The notes below the pieces were generated by a model. It did no database searches. It had not been told where the DNA came from and worked only from the letters and a program-made list of their open reading frames with translations. Positions 11,781 to 24,939 of a stretch of 64,000 bases of DNA are shown piece after piece; the first letter of the stretch is position 1, and each line of letters opens with the position of its first letter. Source of the stretch: an uncultured archaeon (lineage in GTDB: Archaea > Thermoproteota > Nitrososphaeria > Nitrososphaerales > Gagatemarchaeaceae); the NCBI GenBank assembly GCA_963817525.1, contig CAWFOU010000001.1, forward strand, positions 864,001 through 928,000. Direction: 5' to 3'. Both the position numbers and the translations under genes were made by a program.

Positions 11781-14418
11781 TCAAATCACAGACTGCTCCG
11801 CTCTCTGTTCCTGGGGCATGCTCGCGAGCCTCTTCACCCTGTATCGTCTCGCCATGAACGCACCCACTATGAGGACCGCCGCCACGACGCCGACAACCCC
11901 GTAGGCGATGTCCTTGAGCTCCGAGGTGCTCGTGGAGCCATTGGAGACCGTCGTGGTCGTCGCGCCGGACAGCTCGCTCTGGGTCTCTACCGTCGCGGGC
12001 ACCGTGAACGCCTTGACGTGGCTGGCCCCGAAGGTGTCCATGTAGGTAAGGGTGAGCGCTATCTGGACCGTGGAGCCTGTCGCCCCGCGGCTAGAGTTAC
12101 CCAGGCCAGCAAAGCCTCCAGGGAAGGAGAAGTTGGCGGGAAGGGTGAAGTTCCCTATCCTGGTGAAGTTCCCGCTCCGGCTGAAGCTCCTCGTGCTGGT
12201 CGTGGTGGTGCTCACGCTCCCGCTGTGAGAAGTGGTAGATGTGGTCGTCGTGGCTGCCGCAATGGGGGCGACGAAGGGTATCGTCACGCTGAAGGGCAGC
12301 GGCGTGTTGGGGTCGATCTCCCCGAGGTAGACGGGGGTCGCCGATGTGGTGCCCACCACTCCTGACAACGAGGCGTAGTAGATGGACGCGCCCCCCTCGT
12401 CGAGGATGGACCCGGTCACCGTGAAGCCCGCGGTCGACTGGGAGACGGTCGTGTCCTGGAGGATCAGTATCACGGTCCCCTCGAGGGTGAAGCTCACCGG
12501 AAAGTCCTGGGAGTGGGAGGTCCCGCTGGAGTCTGTGAACGAGACGGTGAGGTCCCCGCTGTAGATCCCGGCCGAGGCGCTCGGGCTGCTGGTCAGCTCC
12601 GCGGTGAACGTCTCGTTCGCCCCGGGGTTGAGCTGCGACTCTGGGGTCGGCGAGCCTATCGAGGCGAGCACGAGCGGCGAGCCAGCCTGGAGCGAGAAAG
12701 TCGGGGAGTAGAGCGTGGCGCTCCCGTCGTTAGTGAGCGTGAAGATCGCCCTCGTGGTGGTCCCGGCGGTCACCGTCGAGTTCTCCTGTGTGACCGACAG
12801 CGGGAAGCTGCTCGTGGTCGCCGACACTATCGGCGCCGGCGAGATGACGCTGCTCAGAGTGAGGCGCGACCGAGTTGGAGGTCGTCCACGAGAGGCCAAG
12901 CGTGAAGTTGTAGCTCGCGGGCTTTATCGTGCTCGCCAGGTCGAGGTCGAAGGTGAGCGATATGACCTGGCCGTCGTCCGCGCTCGCGGCGAAGGCCGTA
13001 GCCGTGGAGTGGCCGTTGAGGTCGGAGAAGCCGGACGGCAGGGAGAGCGTCCCCTCGATGCTGGTCACGCTCTGAGACCCGAGGTATTGCAGGCTCACCA
13101 CGAGGGGGACGTCCGAGCTTCCCGGCTCCGGCGAGATGACGGAAGTCGCAGAGGAGCTGGTCGAGTTCAGGGCCTTTTCCCAGGTCGTGCCCTCGACCTG
13201 GAACGAGGACTGGAGCTGGGCGATGGGCGGCGGCGTGAGGACCGTCGTCTGGGTCGTGCCCGAGGACATGGAGGTCATCCATGTAAGGGAGAGCGTGTAG
13301 TTGTAGCTCCCGGGCTGGACGCTGCTCCCGATGTCCAAGTAGAACGTGAGCTGGACCACACCATACTGGTCGGTCGCCGCGGCGGAGACCGCGGTAGCGC
13401 TGCCCTTCCCGTTGAGGTCGGTGATCCCCGTCGGGAGCTCGACCGTCCCCTGGAGGCTGGTCACTGGGTTGAGGCCCAGGTACTGCAACGTGACGACTAG
13501 GGAGGCGTCCTGCGTGCCCGCCAGGGGCGAGGTCGCGCCCGAGCCCCACAGCGCGCTCACCGTCGTGAACGACGAGGAAGAGGACACGCCGCTGCCGACT
13601 ATGAACTCCAGGTTCTGAGAGAAGGTCTGGCTGTTCTCGTATGGGTCGAGGTACTTGGCGTTGAAAGTGAGCGCGACGCCCTGCCCGCTAAGGGAGGACG
13701 GGACGAAGAAATCTACCGTGCCCGAAACGTTCGAGCCCGCGTCGAGCGACTGGATCGTGGGGATCTGGTCGAGGACCGTGATGGCGCTAGGGGTGGAGAC
13801 CGACAGAGCTAGGTTGCTCGTGTCGCCCTGTCCGGTGTTGGAGAGCGTGAAGGTGACGTTGTTGTCCTCGCCGGCGACGAGGTGGGACGTCGTCGAGGTG
13901 AAGCTGAGCACTGCCGGGCTGCGCAGGCCGACAGGGACAGTCACCGCCTGGGTTATCTGGTCTGACGTGCTGTTGCTTGTGTACATGATCGACATCGGGA
14001 TGTCGTAGGTCGAGCCCGTGGCCGAGGTCGGAGCGGTCGGGCTGATGTTGAGGTAGAAGGTCTCGGTGACGAGGGTGTTCGGCTCGATGGAGCTAGAGGC
14101 TATCACCTCGGGCTGGGTCGTGCCATCGGGCCCCGTGAACACGGTCACCCCGGAGAGGTTGAGCTGGAAGGTCGTCTGCGGGGAGAAGCACGGCCCGGCG
14201 AAGAGGAGAGACACCGTGAGGGGGAAGTTCTGGGCTCCGGGGTAGGCGCTCTCCGGAGCGCTAGCCGTGCCCCAGGTCGCCGCCGTTACGCTGAAGGGGT
14301 CGGTGTTCGCCGTGCACGAGACGCTCGGCGATGCGGAGGCGGGTGAGCCCGTGAAAGCGAGCACCTCCAGCAGGAGCAGCGAGAGGACGGCCAGCGATGC
14401 CCGCGAGTTCTTCTTCAT
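11781..14418 (-). CDS. COG1361-type S-layer-domain/Ig-repeat membrane-anchored protein (frameshift near 12860-12880)
   Basis: Signal peptide, repeated beta-sandwich modules (SLQYLG...GTxxLPxGxxDLNG), Ser/Thr linker and C-terminal TM; two ORFs join; typical partner of archaeal MacB-type ABC operons. Confidence 0.75.
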
Positions 14419-15531: not shown

Positions 15532-15818
15532 ACCTATCGAGACCTCCGAGTCGAGGTCAGGTTATAGCGCTTTTCCTGAATGGTTCCCAAATCCTTAGTA
15601 AATCTCCCCACGCTCCGCTCTCCTTGCCCTGATGATGGTTTCGGGGCAGCGGACATTAAAGAATCTTAGGTATCCGGCCTCTGCTTCCCCCGCTACGGCG
15701 AGGCGCGACGACCCCTCACTCCCGGGCCCTAGGAATTCTAGTCTTCGAATCCGGCCTCGACGGGGCGCTGTCCGCCACGATAGCTTAAGAACAGACGGGC
15801 ATGGCTTTCGCGTCGGCA

Positions 15819-17660
15819 ATGAAGGTGGCGATAATCACGCGGGACTATCCGCCCGCGATAGGCGGAATCGCCACCCACGTCGAGGGGCTGGTCAAGGCAC
15901 TGAGGAGGCTCGGCGTCGAGGCCGACCTCTACGTGGGGAGGCACGACGTGAGGACCCTCCTCCTCCCCTTCGACATCCCGCTCAAGGAGTACGACGTCGT
16001 CCACGTCCAGAGCCTCCCCTACGGGGCGTTTGTCTGCGGTGTCCCCCTCGTCGTAACCGTTCACTCCCCCGTTCTGGAGGAGTTCGGCCACTACAGGAAG
16101 ACCCTCAAGCTCGAGTCCGTGCCGGCCATAGCCCTGGAAAAGGCGTCGCTCTCGAGGGCCAGAGCTGTCCTCGCGGTCAGCGGCGAGAGCCGCGCGGAGC
16201 TCGTGAGCAGGTACGGGGTGCGCCATGAGAGGGTCCAGGTCATAGGAAACGGCGTAGATAGCGAAAGGTTCTCGGGGCGGAGGGATCCCGACGCGGCGGC
16301 GGCGCGGAGGGTGCTCGTTGTCTCGAGGCTAGAGCCCCGCAAGAACGTGAGGGAGGCAATAGGGGCCGTCGCTGAGCTGCCTGAGGGGACTTGCAACCTG
16401 GAGATAGCGGGGGACGGGTCGGAGAGGGAGGCGCTGGTCGAGCTGGCGAAGAACATCGGCGCGGGCGACTCTGTCCACTTCCTCGGCAGGGTCGACGGGG
16501 CGTCCCTCCCCGAGGTGTACGCGCGGTCCGCAATCTTCCTGACCACCAGCGAATCGGAGGGGTTCGGGCTGTCCCTACTCGAGGCGATGGCTTGTGTTGT
16601 GAGGGGTACGCTCGTATCCACCAGTAACGGCGCCATGCCCATCGAGAACATCAGGAAGGGGACACTAGTCTTGACTCACTCAGGCAGGTATAGACCCGTC
16701 CTTCAGACCTTTGTCGGGATTCGGGGCGGAGTAATGTATGTGATCGAGACTTCGCATGGGCGCTTATGTATTACGCCGACCCATAAGTTCCTGACAAGAA
16801 GTGGCTGGATGTCCGCCGAATCTCTATACTTCGCTTGCAAGTCTGAGCATGCAGCAGAGAGGGTACATCGCCGGCTTCTTCGATGGAGAGAGTCATATGA
16901 CAATAAACATAGTAAGGCAAACGAAGACTTCGAGGCACCTAGGGACCGGGCTTGGAATCCGGCCGATGATAGAGGTCGCTCAGAACTCTCGGCGTCAGGA
17001 AGTTCTTTACTGGATAAAAGGAAAGCTCGGAGGCCGCGTCGTGCCGGATTTACCTCGACACGAATCAAGATTGGTAATCGGGGGCAGACGCTCGGTAGGT
17101 CCCATCTTAGAGACATTATTGCCACTGCTGATTTGCAAGAGGAACGTCGCGATGCTAGTTCTGGAGGTCTGCAACAGGAGGTTGTCATTCGTCCAGAATA
17201 TGCCGGAGGATTGGATTTGGTTTATCGACAAGGCGATCCAGGTGCGAATGATAAATTCGGAATTCAGCCCGGAGCGGCTTCAGAAGGGTGTCGGGAGGCT
17301 GAATGGATTGAAATCGGAAGTATTGAACCGATACAGTATGTCGGGCAAATATTCGATCTCTCCGTAGCAGCAGACAACTCATACGTAGCGAACGGCCTGA
17401 CGGTCCACAACTCCGGCTGCGCGTGCGTGGCATCTGACCTCCCTACCCACAGGGGCCTTATCGAGCATGGCGTGAACGGGATGATATACCGAAATCGGGG
17501 GGAGCTTGTCGCCTGCCTGAAGGAACTCCTATCCTCGCCGGCGAAGGTAGAGAGGCTAGGTGCGGCCGCTAGCCGGGTGGCGAGCGGGCTCACCTGGGAG
17601 AAGGTAGCAATGAAGGTAACTGGGGCCTACGAGAGTGTCCTGCAACGCCCGAAGCCCTGA
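15819..17660 (+). CDS. GT4 glycosyltransferase interrupted by an intein
   Basis: MKVAIITRDYPPAIGG, VSRLEPRKN and EGFGLSLLEAMA|SGCACVASD; removing 273 aa restores an ordinary GT4 of about 340 aa; CTTAAG about 30 nt upstream of ATG 15819. Confidence 0.92.
   Translation: MKVAIITRDYPPAIGGIATHVEGLVKALRRLGVEADLYVGRHDVRTLLLPFDIPLKEYDVVHVQSLPYGAFVCGVPLVVTVHSPVLEEFGHYRKTLKLESVPAIALEKASLSRARAVLAVSGESRAELVSRYGVRHERVQVIGNGVDSERFSGRRDPDAAAARRVLVVSRLEPRKNVREAIGAVAELPEGTCNLEIAGDGSEREALVELAKNIGAGDSVHFLGRVDGASLPEVYARSAIFLTTSESEGFGLSLLEAMACVVRGTLVSTSNGAMPIENIRKGTLVLTHSGRYRPVLQTFVGIRGGVMYVIETSHGRLCITPTHKFLTRSGWMSAESLYFACKSEHAAERVHRRLLRWRESYDNKHSKANEDFEAPRDRAWNPADDRGRSELSASGSSLLDKRKARRPRRAGFTSTRIKIGNRGQTLGRSHLRDIIATADLQEERRDASSGGLQQEVVIRPEYAGGLDLVYRQGDPGANDKFGIQPGAASEGCREAEWIEIGSIEPIQYVGQIFDLSVAADNSYVANGLTVHNSGCACVASDLPTHRGLIEHGVNGMIYRNRGELVACLKELLSSPAKVERLGAAASRVASGLTWEKVAMKVTGAYESVLQRPKP
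16593..17411 (+). mobile_element. class 1 intein (273 aa), no in-frame endonuclease
   Basis: Starts CVVRGTLV (block A), LCITPTHKFL (block B TxxH), GWMSAESL, IFDLSVAADNSYVANG (block F), TVHN|S (block G with +1 Ser); lower GC than the flanks. Confidence 0.93.
16849..17367 (+). CDS. single-motif LAGLIDADG homing endonuclease (I-CreI-like), nested in the +1 frame inside the intein
   Basis: YIAGFFDGES motif; IEVAQ, LLPLLICKRNVAMLVL and IQVRMINS align by eye with I-CreI FQVTQ, LQPFLKLKQKQANLVL and DQIAALND; frame open 16795-17367 with ATG at 16849. Confidence 0.85.
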   Translation: MQQRGYIAGFFDGESHMTINIVRQTKTSRHLGTGLGIRPMIEVAQNSRRQEVLYWIKGKLGGRVVPDLPRHESRLVIGGRRSVGPILETLLPLLICKRNVAMLVLEVCNRRLSFVQNMPEDWIWFIDKAIQVRMINSEFSPERLQKGVGRLNGLKSEVLNRYSMSGKYSISP

Positions 17661-22037: not shown

Positions 22038-23038
22038 TTGGTCAGCTCGAGCCTGGAGGGCGCTAGAATCGCCGTGACTGGTGGGGCGGGCTTCATCGGC
22101 AGCCACCTGTGCGATAGGATCATCCAGGAGAAGCCGTCCAGACTCATAGTCGTCGACGACTTTTCCCTGGGGAAGCAGAGGAATGTCAGGCTCTTCGCGG
22201 GCAACCGCAACGTGAGAATCTACCGGACAGACGCGGCCGACTACCCAACGATGGACAGAATTCTGGAGAAGGAGCGGATAGACGTGGCATTTGACCTCGC
22301 GGTCATACCCCTGCCAAAATCTCTCGAGCTGCCCATGGAGACGGTCGAGACCAACGTCAAGCTGACGACCACTCTGTGTGAGCTCCTGCGAAAGAAGAGG
22401 TTCAAGACCTTGGTGCACTGCTCATCCTCAGAGGCCTACGGGAACGCGCTTCACGTCCCGATGGACGAGAGCCATCCACAGCTTCCGCTCACTCCTTATG
22501 CCGCGAGCAAGATCGCAGGGGACCACATCGCAATCTCATACGACAGGGCCTTCGACCTCGACATCGCCATCGCCAGACCCTTCAACACCTACGGCCCTCG
22601 GCAGAACGAGTTCTCGTATGCGGGGGTCATCCCCCGAACCATAATGAAGATGATGCGCGGCGAGCCGCCGGAAATCTTCGGTGACGGTCACCAGACGAGG
22701 GACTTCTCGTATGTCGGGGACATGATAGAGGGGATAATCGCCGTCTTCGAGACCCATTCGACAAGGGGGCGAGTCGTGAACATCGCGAGCGGGAAAGAGG
22801 TAAGGATCAAGAAATCATCGAGACAATCGCCGAATGCACGGATTACCACGGCGACATCGTCTACAAACCTTCAAGACCGGGCGACGTGGTTAGGCACAGA
22901 GCGGATATCTCGCTCGCAAAAAGTCTCTTTGGCTACACCCCGAAGACCGGGCTCGAGGAGGGGCTCAAGAGGACGGTCGATTGGTATAGAGAGGAGTCGA
23001 AGGCAACCGGAGGGGAAAAGCGGCGACGCGCCGCCTAG
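22038..23038 (+). CDS. NAD-dependent sugar epimerase/dehydratase (frameshift near 22812)
   Basis: TGGAGFIG, SSSEAYG, YAASK and RPFNTYGPRQ; the C-terminus RPGDV..H.ADIS..LEEGLKRTVDWY is in another frame ending at 23038. Confidence 0.88.
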
Positions 23039-24939
23039 GTCAGCACGCCTATCCCGTCCGAAGGTTTTTGGACCCTCGCCTCTTCGATGTACAACCTGTA
23101 CCACATTACAAATGTGACGAGCGCGAACAGCTTGCTCGAGTTGAGATAAGGGTCCTGTATGAGTGACCTTACCTCATCCCTGTCGAGAAGACCGGTGTAA
23201 CCTTTCGAGACCACCGGGTCCAGGATTTGAGGCACTATCTCCTTCCACTCTTTTTGCATCCATGACTCAATCGGAGCGCCGAAGCCCTGCTTCTTTCGCG
23301 TAGCAATCTCGCGTGGAATCAGGCCTTTCTTCACCGCCATCCTCTTGAAGATGTACTTGGTCATCCTCCCGTTCATCTTCATCCTCGACGGGATTGTCGC
23401 GACCAAATCTGCGAGCCGCTGGTCGAGGAGCGGACACCGCGCTTCCAGTGAAACTGCCATCGACATCCTGTCCACCTTCACGAGGATGTCCTCCTCAAGG
23501 TACGACCTCACCGTGGCATAGTCCACCCTGTCGAGGCCGTCTTGGCTGGGACAATTCGCCATCAACTCCCTCACGTAAGAGTATGTGTCAACCGGCTTGT
23601 GCCGGGCTAGGTGGCTCTTCGCATACAAGCGCTCCAAACCCGTGGAATCGTGCAGAGTGACGCGCATGACAAAGCGGTCGGCGTGAGACTGGCTACCGTA
23701 GTCCTTCTCATAGGCGTGCCTGGCCATCCGCTTGAACTGCTTGTCGACTGGAAGGCGCGTCATGGCCTTGAGGGCGGGTCGCCTCAGCGGTGCTGGCACC
23801 TTCGAGTAGATGGGATACGAGCGGGGGTCGAGGAGGAACGGATAGCCCATAAAAAGCTCGTCTCCCCCGTCGCCGCTGAGCGCGACAGTCACCTCTTGCC
23901 TGGTGACCTCGGAGAGGTAATACGTGGGAATCATTGAGTGGTCGGCGAAAGGCTCGTCGAAGTGCCAGATCAGCTTTGGGAGGATCTTGTATGCCTCGGG
24001 CGTCACCGTGTGCTCGTGGTGGTCGGTCTTCAGGAAGTCCGCGACCTTTTGGGCGTGGGCGGTCTCGCTGGTCTCGTTCTGGAAGCCAATGCAGATCGTC
24101 TTGACGGGGACGTCGGAGAGCTTGCTCATGAAGGCGACCACGGTGCTCGAGTCGATTCCCCCCGACAGGAATGCGCCAAGCGGGACGTCGCTCCTCATCC
24201 TAATCTTCACGGCCTCCTCGATTGAAGAATACAGGAGGTCTATCGCCGCTTCCTCGGTCAACGAGCGGTCAGGCCTCATAGCAAAATCCCAAAACCGGTG
24301 CGTCGAAAGCCTGCCCTTTTCGTAGACTCCATATGTGGCCGGAGGGAGCTTCCGGATGTCCCTGAAGATTGACAGCGGAGAAGGCACGTACATGTATGTG
24401 AAGTAATAGTCCAGCGCGGCGTAGTCCAACGACCTTCCGATGGTCTCGTAGCGCAGTATGGACTTCAATTCGGACGCGAAGAGGAACACGCCACCCACAA
24501 TCGCGTAGTAGAGCGGCTTCTTTCCGAACCGGTCCCTGGCGACCAAGAGCCTCCTCTGGTTCGCGTCCCAGAGGGCAAACGCGAACATACCCCTGAGGTG
24601 GGTGACCAAGTCGTCGCCCCAGGCCTCGTAGGCGTGGACGAGCGTCTCCGTGTCGGAGGCCGTGTAGAACCGATGCCCCAGTCTCTCCCACTCTGCTTTG
24701 AGCTCCAGGTAATTGTAGATCTCCCCGTTAAAAACGACCCAGACCGAGCCGTCCTCGTTGTGGATGGGCTGGTCTCCCGTCGCGAGGTCTATCATCTTGA
24801 GCCTGTCTATCCCCAGACCCACGCCGTCATCGATGTAGTAGTCGGTCTGGTCAGGCCCTCGGTGCCTTATCGCGTCGCACATCGACCTCAGCAGAGACTT
24901 GTCGGAGAGCCCGACAAATCCGCAGATGCCGCAGCCCAT
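23035..24939 (-). CDS. asnB: asparagine synthase (glutamine-hydrolysing)-like amidotransferase
   Basis: CGICG, FNGEIYN, RDRFGKKPLYY, LSGGIDSS, SGDGGDELF, DRMSMA and KQGF motifs. Confidence 0.92.
   Translation of the reverse strand: MGCGICGFVGLSDKSLLRSMCDAIRHRGPDQTDYYIDDGVGLGIDRLKMIDLATGDQPIHNEDGSVWVVFNGEIYNYLELKAEWERLGHRFYTASDTETLVHAYEAWGDDLVTHLRGMFAFALWDANQRRLLVARDRFGKKPLYYAIVGGVFLFASELKSILRYETIGRSLDYAALDYYFTYMYVPSPLSIFRDIRKLPPATYGVYEKGRLSTHRFWDFAMRPDRSLTEEAAIDLLYSSIEEAVKIRMRSDVPLGAFLSGGIDSSTVVAFMSKLSDVPVKTICIGFQNETSETAHAQKVADFLKTDHHEHTVTPEAYKILPKLIWHFDEPFADHSMIPTYYLSEVTRQEVTVALSGDGGDELFMGYPFLLDPRSYPIYSKVPAPLRRPALKAMTRLPVDKQFKRMARHAYEKDYGSQSHADRFVMRVTLHDSTGLERLYAKSHLARHKPVDTYSYVRELMANCPSQDGLDRVDYATVRSYLEEDILVKVDRMSMAVSLEARCPLLDQRLADLVATIPSRMKMNGRMTKYIFKRMAVKKGLIPREIATRKKQGFGAPIESWMQKEWKEIVPQILDPVVSKGYTGLLDRDEVRSLIQDPYLNSSKLFALVTFVMWYRLYIEEARVQKPSDGIGVLT

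Follow-up and report, generated by a model that had tools for sequence, protein, structure and literature searches.

The intein interrupting a GT4 glycosyltransferase gene in the window (i.e., the whole 64,000-nucleotide stretch of DNA analyzed here) is well supported as being a dual-coding element that holds, in its +1 frame, an intact-looking enzyme of the I-CreI class, the activity of which is predicted. It is likely that this one stretch of DNA yields two products acting as a single homing element, namely, a splicing intein read in frame 0 and a homodimeric endonuclease read in frame +1.

The host gene (15801 or 15819 to 17660, forward strand), recognized by its Pfam Glycos_transf_1 and Glyco_transf_4 matches, is split at the motif EAMA/SG by a 273-residue (819-nucleotide) intein (for general background, see PMC3943268). 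The intein runs from Cys1 to a His-Asn pair followed by Ser, and presents the features of a class 1 intein, namely, Cys1, a block B TxxH, a block F Asp, terminal His-Asn, Ser+1, a Hint fold and a clean insertion relative to empty alleles. In a model of the host-frame product, both ends form the Hint domain at pLDDT values of 81–92, with residues 100–233 remaining below 50. Nested within the intein and shifted by +1 relative to the host frame is an ORF of 172 residues (16849–17367, forward strand). Across this ORF, the third frame contains 15 stop codons; the host frame contains none, as compared to a mean of 5.2 in synonymous and codon-order shuffles (P~0.001). The element has one LAGLIDADG motif and not the two of a canonical intein, with that motif being in the +1 frame and the host-frame loop being unmodelled, while an open host frame, purifying selection in the other frame (see below) and patchy occurrence place it among non-canonical inteins with an off-frame endonuclease. 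The features of the region are collected in Table 1.

Table 1. Features of the glycosyltransferase gene, its intein and the nested endonuclease gene (positions are those of the window).
Feature	Position	Strand	Basis or remark
Host TATA-like box CTTAAG	15784..15789	+	35 nt before ATG15819; same box and spacing in the window and 3/6 orthologous loci (L001–L003; L004–L006 gave no start pattern)
GT4 glycosyltransferase N-extein	15819..16592	+	Pfam, alignment; ORF caller start at 15801, orthologs start at 15819 Met
Left part of pseudo-palindromic candidate target	16581..16592	+	Centered 5 nt ahead of the insertion point; runs on into the C-extein in empty alleles
Intein, 273 aa, Cys1...TxxH...His-Asn, Ser+1	16593..17411	+	Frame open throughout
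N-terminal splicing (Hint) region	16593..16829	+	pLDDT 83–92 over residues 1–80; host-frame dN/dS 0.23
17-nt block common to both alleles, with CTTATG at 16763–16768	16753..16769	+	Candidate internal TATA box, suggestive
GTG, candidate endonuclease start (188-aa form)	16801..16803	+	From intein x-Gly-Trp codons; GTG in the window and L001
Single-motif LAGLIDADG endonuclease ORF core	16849..17367	+	+1 frame; ATG16849 not conserved
LAGLIDADG helix YIAGFFDGES	16864..16893	+	Metal-binding E14 at 16888–16890; predicted dimer interface
Q45, column of I-CreI Q47 and I-MsoI Q50	16981..16983	+	Alignment
K97, column of I-CreI K98 and I-MsoI K104	17137..17139	+	Invariant, 97/97
Host-frame read-through of endonuclease gene, low-confidence loop linker	16890..17291	+	pLDDT <50, intein residues 100–233; host-frame dN/dS 1.97
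C-terminal splicing region	17290..17411	+	17290–17367 dual-coding with endonuclease tail; endonuclease stop comes from intein codons
GT4 C-extein, Ser+1	17412..17660	+	Alignment

The region spanning positions 15819–63940 corresponds to a long glycosylation cluster encoding GT2 and GT4 transferases, sugar epimerases, aminotransferases, a flippase, an STT3-like protein and an asparagine-synthase-like amidotransferase. Two other genes in the window look frameshifted, namely, one at 11781–14418, where a secreted repeat protein is spread across two ORFs (with the split being elsewhere in the orthologous locus L001, suggestive of assembly indels), and that of an NAD-dependent epimerase at 22038–23117, which loses frame near its end. 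The gene lying downstream of the host gene differs between the window and L001.

Orthologs of the host gene were found in Nitrososphaerota or archaeal MAGs, pointing to an archaeon of this kind as the most likely origin of the window. In L001, from a second genome and the one other intein-bearing allele compared as DNA, the intein is again 819 nucleotides long and free of gaps, with the endonuclease again in the +1 frame and the host frame across this stretch containing no stop codons, where 3.9 were expected (P~0.006). Three divergent glycosyltransferases (P0006, P0007 and P0008) contain the same intein, 52–65% identical and open in the host frame; two endonuclease homologs were detected at 74% identity, and protein P0002 is compatible with P0007 read in the +1 frame at 184 of 185 positions. 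Over the 143 codons compared between the window and L001, the single pair from which all dN/dS values reported here were drawn, dN/dS was 0.10 for the endonuclease frame (dS 1.87; 72% identity), as compared to 1.97 for the host frame and 1.11 for the third; in the host frame of the splicing regions, values of 0.23 (N-terminal) and 0.02 (C-terminal) were obtained for the same pair. Purifying selection on the +1 endonuclease frame is thus supported.

These comparisons also bear on the idea that the arrangement reflects two compensating assembly indels in an in-frame intein or, instead, a bulge-helix-bulge RNA intron nested in the intein. In their favor, other genes in the window seem frameshifted, and enzymes encoded in introns provide the best structural matches (see below). 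Nonetheless, the same register was seen in independent assemblies and the host frame is free of stops in four distinct alleles, on which grounds an assembly artefact was excluded, while searches at four stringency settings revealed no bulge-helix-bulge motif shared between alleles and the window gave no Rfam matches. Both explanations are extremely unlikely, the nested intron being one that the first-pass annotation had asked to be excluded. Nor, with no Rfam match, no shared bulge-helix-bulge motif and an open host frame, does the enzyme classify as an intron-encoded (I-) endonuclease.

That annotation had also taken the ORF to encode a single-motif endonuclease of the I-CreI class that looks catalytically intact, a view borne out by profile comparison, Foldseek and VIA-align. 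Taken alone, the ORF gave one weak LAGLIDADG_1 match in Pfam (23.5 bits vs. a cutoff of 23.1) and direct comparison of the window endonuclease (P0001) with the sequences of solved proteins reached only E 0.018. A profile of 97 single-domain relatives, itself containing I-CreI-like members, returned I-CreI, I-MsoI and I-CvuI with per-domain values of 1e-27 to 1e-31, with two-domain enzymes scoring lower. In the alignment of these 97 proteins, E14, Q45 and K97 occupy the metal-ligand, Gln and Lys columns, such that the catalytic residues appear to be intact. These columns contain Asp or Glu in 96, Gln or Asn in 87 and Lys in all 97 proteins, respectively, and, in a profile alignment with residues counted by hand, correspond to I-CreI D20, Q47 and K98 and to I-MsoI D22, Q50 and K104, the latter three being named as active-site residues in the available text of PMC2655683. 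The single motif helix, read earlier as YIAGFFDGE, was confirmed, except that the final Gly of the motif is replaced by Ser (S15). This column contains Gly in 89 and Ser in three of the 97 proteins, all three belonging to the present endonuclease family; a Glu-Ser motif ending also occurs in the solved enzyme 6bcg.

The AlphaFold2 model of the endonuclease (pLDDT 92.4) most resembled I-CvuI (Z 18.5, rmsd 2.1, 150 residues aligned), followed by I-MsoI (Z 18.3), the archaeal intron enzyme I-Vdi141I (Z 16.7) and I-TnaI (Z 16.0), as compared to a Z of 7.9 for the intein enzyme PI-PfuI (rmsd 2.4, 91 residues aligned) in VIA-align; Foldseek was in agreement. This difference, together with the dN/dS of 0.10, argues against the ORF being a non-functional remnant, whether a decayed relic or one half of a divided two-motif intein enzyme. 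Such a relic could explain the weak Pfam score and the damaged look of the relative P0003, a partial or decayed protein with Arg in the Gln column and no motif helix, and a grouping of the family with 14 halves of two-domain matches stays above the usual rejection level in tree tests (p-AU 0.064). The tree so constrained was, however, 39.9 lnL units worse, no two-domain halves fell into the 34-row group that contains the family, and a second domain would not fit in the intein. A relic is accordingly very unlikely.

Single-motif enzymes of the I-CreI class introduce a metal-dependent double-strand cut, leaving 4-nt 3' overhangs. Such enzymes are described as homodimers (PMC2655683; PMC11270868) that cut pseudo-palindromic DNA (PMC2655683), in the available text of these sources. 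A homodimer, as suggested at first pass, is likely here as well. When two copies of the endonuclease were modelled together, a score of 0.65 was obtained, as compared to 0.32 for the best control, thereby clearing a threshold that 20 of 30 solved pairs and one of 23 single chains attained, with such a pass speaking to likeness to solved I-CreI-type complexes rather than to binding and possibly reflecting model recall. The runs agreed on at least 97% of contacts at pLDDT values of at least 79, and the predicted interface is symmetric and formed by helix 1, the LAGLIDADG helix. The further proposal that translation in a separate frame is what permits dimerization was weakened by the existence of P0012, considered below, in which a single-motif endonuclease lies in frame with its intein.

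The start of the endonuclease is less easily assigned. The ATG at 16849, originally taken as the start, is GCG in L001, and Met cannot be encoded at this position in any of the three divergent homologs (P0006, P0007 and P0008). Likewise, the TATA-like sequence CTCTATAC noted upstream is indeed present at 16822–16829 but is not conserved in L001. Instead, the window and L001 have in common a +1 stop codon at 16792, a GTG at 16801 and a CTG at 16843. Judged from these two DNA sequences, GTG16801 is the better candidate for the start, giving a protein of 188 residues. This GTG depends on codons ending in T that are seldom used (AGT makes up 6% of Ser codons in the genes of the window, and GGT 6% of those for Gly in L001 genes), and appears at the identical place in both alleles despite that rarity. 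A start codon is encodable at the same position in P0006 and P0007, and the distant homolog P0011 begins with Met at the matching x-Gly-Trp motif. CTG16843 is a possible alternative; the JGI gene call for P0002 begins at the Leu corresponding to this codon. Both the window and L001 also contain, in the +1 frame, a short upstream ORF of 12 codons that runs from ATG16756 to TGA16792 (16756–16794), ends six bases before GTG16801 and could represent either a reinitiation aid or a by-product of the intein codons.

As for transcription, the sequence CTTATG is found 38 nucleotides before GTG16801, within a 17-nucleotide run that is the longest identical stretch of the N-terminal part of the intein in the window and L001. 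CTTATG is a putative internal TATA box that is no more than suggestive, given that the 17-nucleotide block also encodes conserved intein residues; a sigma-70 scan is uninformative for archaeal DNA. Weak support for an internal promoter, the lack of a conserved ATG and a +1 frame without stops from 16795 onward in the two alleles would suit synthesis of the endonuclease by programmed +1 frameshifting on the host mRNA, somewhere in 16795–16860, yielding a fusion to the extein and N-terminal part of the intein. Yet a simple motif scan of 16593–16860 found no slippery run shared by the alleles, RNA structure around the start was not significant (z 0.89 and -1.34), and seldom-used codons ending in T give a GTG at one place in the two alleles, at which P0011 has Met. 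Frameshifting is thus considered unlikely, and an internal start is preferred.

Five orthologs of the host gene are empty at the insertion site, and a mini-intein was found at none of the six orthologous loci. In an extein tree of five filled and five empty alleles, a single clade of filled alleles was rejected (p-AU 0.00033); such interleaving is consistent with either spread by homing or repeated loss. When mean palindromy across the five empty alleles was considered, the most palindromic center lay 5 nucleotides before the insertion point, ranking first of 181 for arms 1–11 and 1–7 and third for arms 3–11, with the top center having about a 7% chance of falling there (13 of 181 centers lie within 6 nucleotides of the site) and the palindrome being partly fixed by host codons. 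Once inserted, the intein would take the place of the outer right arm. This pseudo-palindrome fits, to a modest degree, the target of a homodimer and is offered as a candidate site. In a separate comparison, P0005 and the window were found to be identical throughout the intein (273/273) and the first 26 residues of the C-extein, and to match at 255 of 258 positions in the N-extein and at 32 of 55 positions thereafter. This places a recombination breakpoint about 80 nucleotides past the intein (within window positions 17490–17660 vs. P0005), at the edge of the variable glycosylation gene cluster.

Profile searching for relatives of the endonuclease yielded 138 matches. Of the 137 outside the family, 109 are no longer than 240 residues, 17 are two-domain proteins and one, P0012, contains an in-frame Hint domain. 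The two best outside matches are both linked to inteins and are both known as protein only. P0012 (E 6e-11), a terminase large subunit, carries an intein in which an intact-looking single-motif endonuclease lies in frame, with the motif, Gln and Lys being present; its splicing domain is no nearer to the window intein (36%) than are those of mycobacteriophage methylase inteins (35.5%). P0011 (E 1e-15; ~31% identity) is a stand-alone prediction, the first and last residues of which resemble a +1 shadow cast by the intein blocks xW..A..L and Y.G.VY.L. This shadow ranked first among 274 protein-frame pairs, with or without the window intein in training, and its terminal windows ranked 3–28 of 52,104 in a test performed after the shadow had been noticed by eye; a version ignoring protein ends had low power, with family members themselves ranking 24–34 of 52,550. 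P0011 is thus a probable further, distantly related intein endonuclease in the +1 off-frame state, its ATG lying at the x-Gly-Trp motif. A long C-terminal helix is common to the family, P0011 and P0012.

In a quick tree, the family, P0011, P0012 and P0016 fell together with a cluster of 17 I-CreI-like matches in the 34-row group (SH-aLRT 97); one match, P0019, aligns with I-CvuI at 1e-31. A more careful tree (61 of 159 domains) joined P0011 and P0012 (97/77) and left the sister of the family open. The phylogeny called for at first pass did not settle placement, as AU tests rejected none of three arrangements: the family with P0011, P0012 and P0016 had the best likelihood (p-AU 0.61; by 7.6 lnL), and grouping with the 17 I-CreI-like matches gave a p-AU of 0.26, the third being that with two-domain halves discussed above. 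As such, of the intron-type origin proposed earlier, the intron-type fold holds, while the donor is in doubt. Direct, out-of-frame entry into a mini-intein of a single-motif endonuclease gene, either free-standing or from an rRNA intron, is a real possibility, if short of an even chance, given that the best solved folds are those of intron enzymes, that 17 I-CreI-like matches share the group of the family, and that Gosselin et al. (in the available text) and Phillips et al. proposed such a model for other off-frame cases. Against this stand the intein linkage of both closest outside matches, the better likelihood of the tree joining them to the family, a gene with neither start nor stop of its own and the lack of a mini-intein at the six loci. 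An intein-resident lineage is slightly favored as the origin.

It is tentatively proposed that one single-motif homodimeric lineage resides in inteins in both states, i.e., +1 off-frame with a borrowed start and stop (the family and P0011) and in-frame (P0012). The off-frame state is perhaps the older, because moving from off-frame to in-frame needs no purging of stop codons, while about five would be exposed by a move the other way; the off-frame to in-frame transition was proposed in the available text of Gosselin et al. (bioRxiv 10.1101/2025.01.02.630785). Other searches added little. A plasmid search gave no match to the window endonuclease, and an atlas search returned LAGLIDADG_1 clusters only. 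A phage search returned a sole match to the window endonuclease, at 30% identity and outside the tree group of the family, and none to P0011. No longer, fused forms were seen among 8000 scored candidates, in a search that also missed P0012. The phage match is a gene of Gordonia phage OneUp (L020:2480–3046) that encodes a free-standing single-motif LAGLIDADG protein, lies beside rtcB and is labelled HNH in one of two records.

In the mechanism proposed, translation in frame 0 would generate a glycosyltransferase precursor from which a mini-intein-like Hint domain, with its unstructured loop of ~135 residues, would splice itself out. Frame +1 would give rise to a separate I-CreI-class subunit of 172–188 residues, the translation of which would most probably begin at GTG16801 of an internal transcript. 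Such subunits would pair through the LAGLIDADG helix, and the dimer would cut empty alleles in the pseudo-palindrome that surrounds their E-A-M-S/A-S codons. Repair of the cut allele would then copy the whole intein, such that the two frames would behave as one homing element.

Because annotation sees just a glycosyltransferase with a 'decayed' intein, elements of this sort are missed. The present example widens the range of off-frame intein endonucleases to include archaea, a same-strand single-motif class and a host gene unrelated to replication. Given that empty alleles, a candidate target and relatives both in and out of frame are at hand, the question of how inteins gain endonucleases becomes testable, and the enzyme may offer a new small meganuclease scaffold. 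Should a lineage with both states prove true, it would be a caught example of an overlapping endonuclease gene sliding into frame to give a contiguous intein, and would imply an internal archaeal promoter written in splicing-domain codons.

When compared with known systems, the endonuclease matches I-CreI, I-CvuI, I-MsoI, I-Vdi141I and I-TnaI in fold (Z 16–18.5; rmsd 2.0–2.3 Å over 137–154 residues), as well as in the single motif, the catalytic triad columns, the helix-1 dimer interface (here predicted) and the pseudo-palindromic site (here a candidate). It differs from these enzymes in showing only ~20% identity, in ending its motif with Glu-Ser rather than Asp-Gly, in its longer C-terminal helix and in being encoded in the alternate frame of an intein, rather than in an RNA intron. 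An out-of-frame LAGLIDADG endonuclease was described in the cyanobacterial dnaX intein (Phillips et al., bioRxiv 10.64898/2026.09.14.751524), with which the present element shares a same-strand overlapping ORF, a host-frame linker that is disordered, purifying selection acting on the alternate frame and a patchy distribution. The dnaX enzyme, however, is described as having plural motifs, likeness to I-WcaI, putative Shine-Dalgarno sites and mini-intein alleles, whereas the element described here is archaeal, has a single motif and a glycosyltransferase host, and showed no mini allele at six loci. As described in the available text of Gosselin et al., the non-canonical inteins of actinobacteriophages likewise feature an off-frame LAGLIDADG endonuclease that is modelled as resembling I-CreI (2O7M; Z 14.8), is possibly dimeric and is still homing; unlike the present case, it is antisense and phage-borne, with the same-strand off-frame (frame-3) example presented there being endonuclease VII-like. 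The ShiLan domain, an HNH endonuclease encoded out of frame in a phage methylase, is similar in that an open host frame conceals an endonuclease with a GTG start, yet belongs to a different family and, going by the available text of PMC11855218, comes without a splicing domain. A literature search found no archaeal, same-strand single-motif off-frame case, although the supplements of the preprints might list such elements. Hence, off-frame intein endonucleases are already known from cyanobacterial dnaX and actinophages, and it is the archaeal, same-strand, single-motif form that is new.
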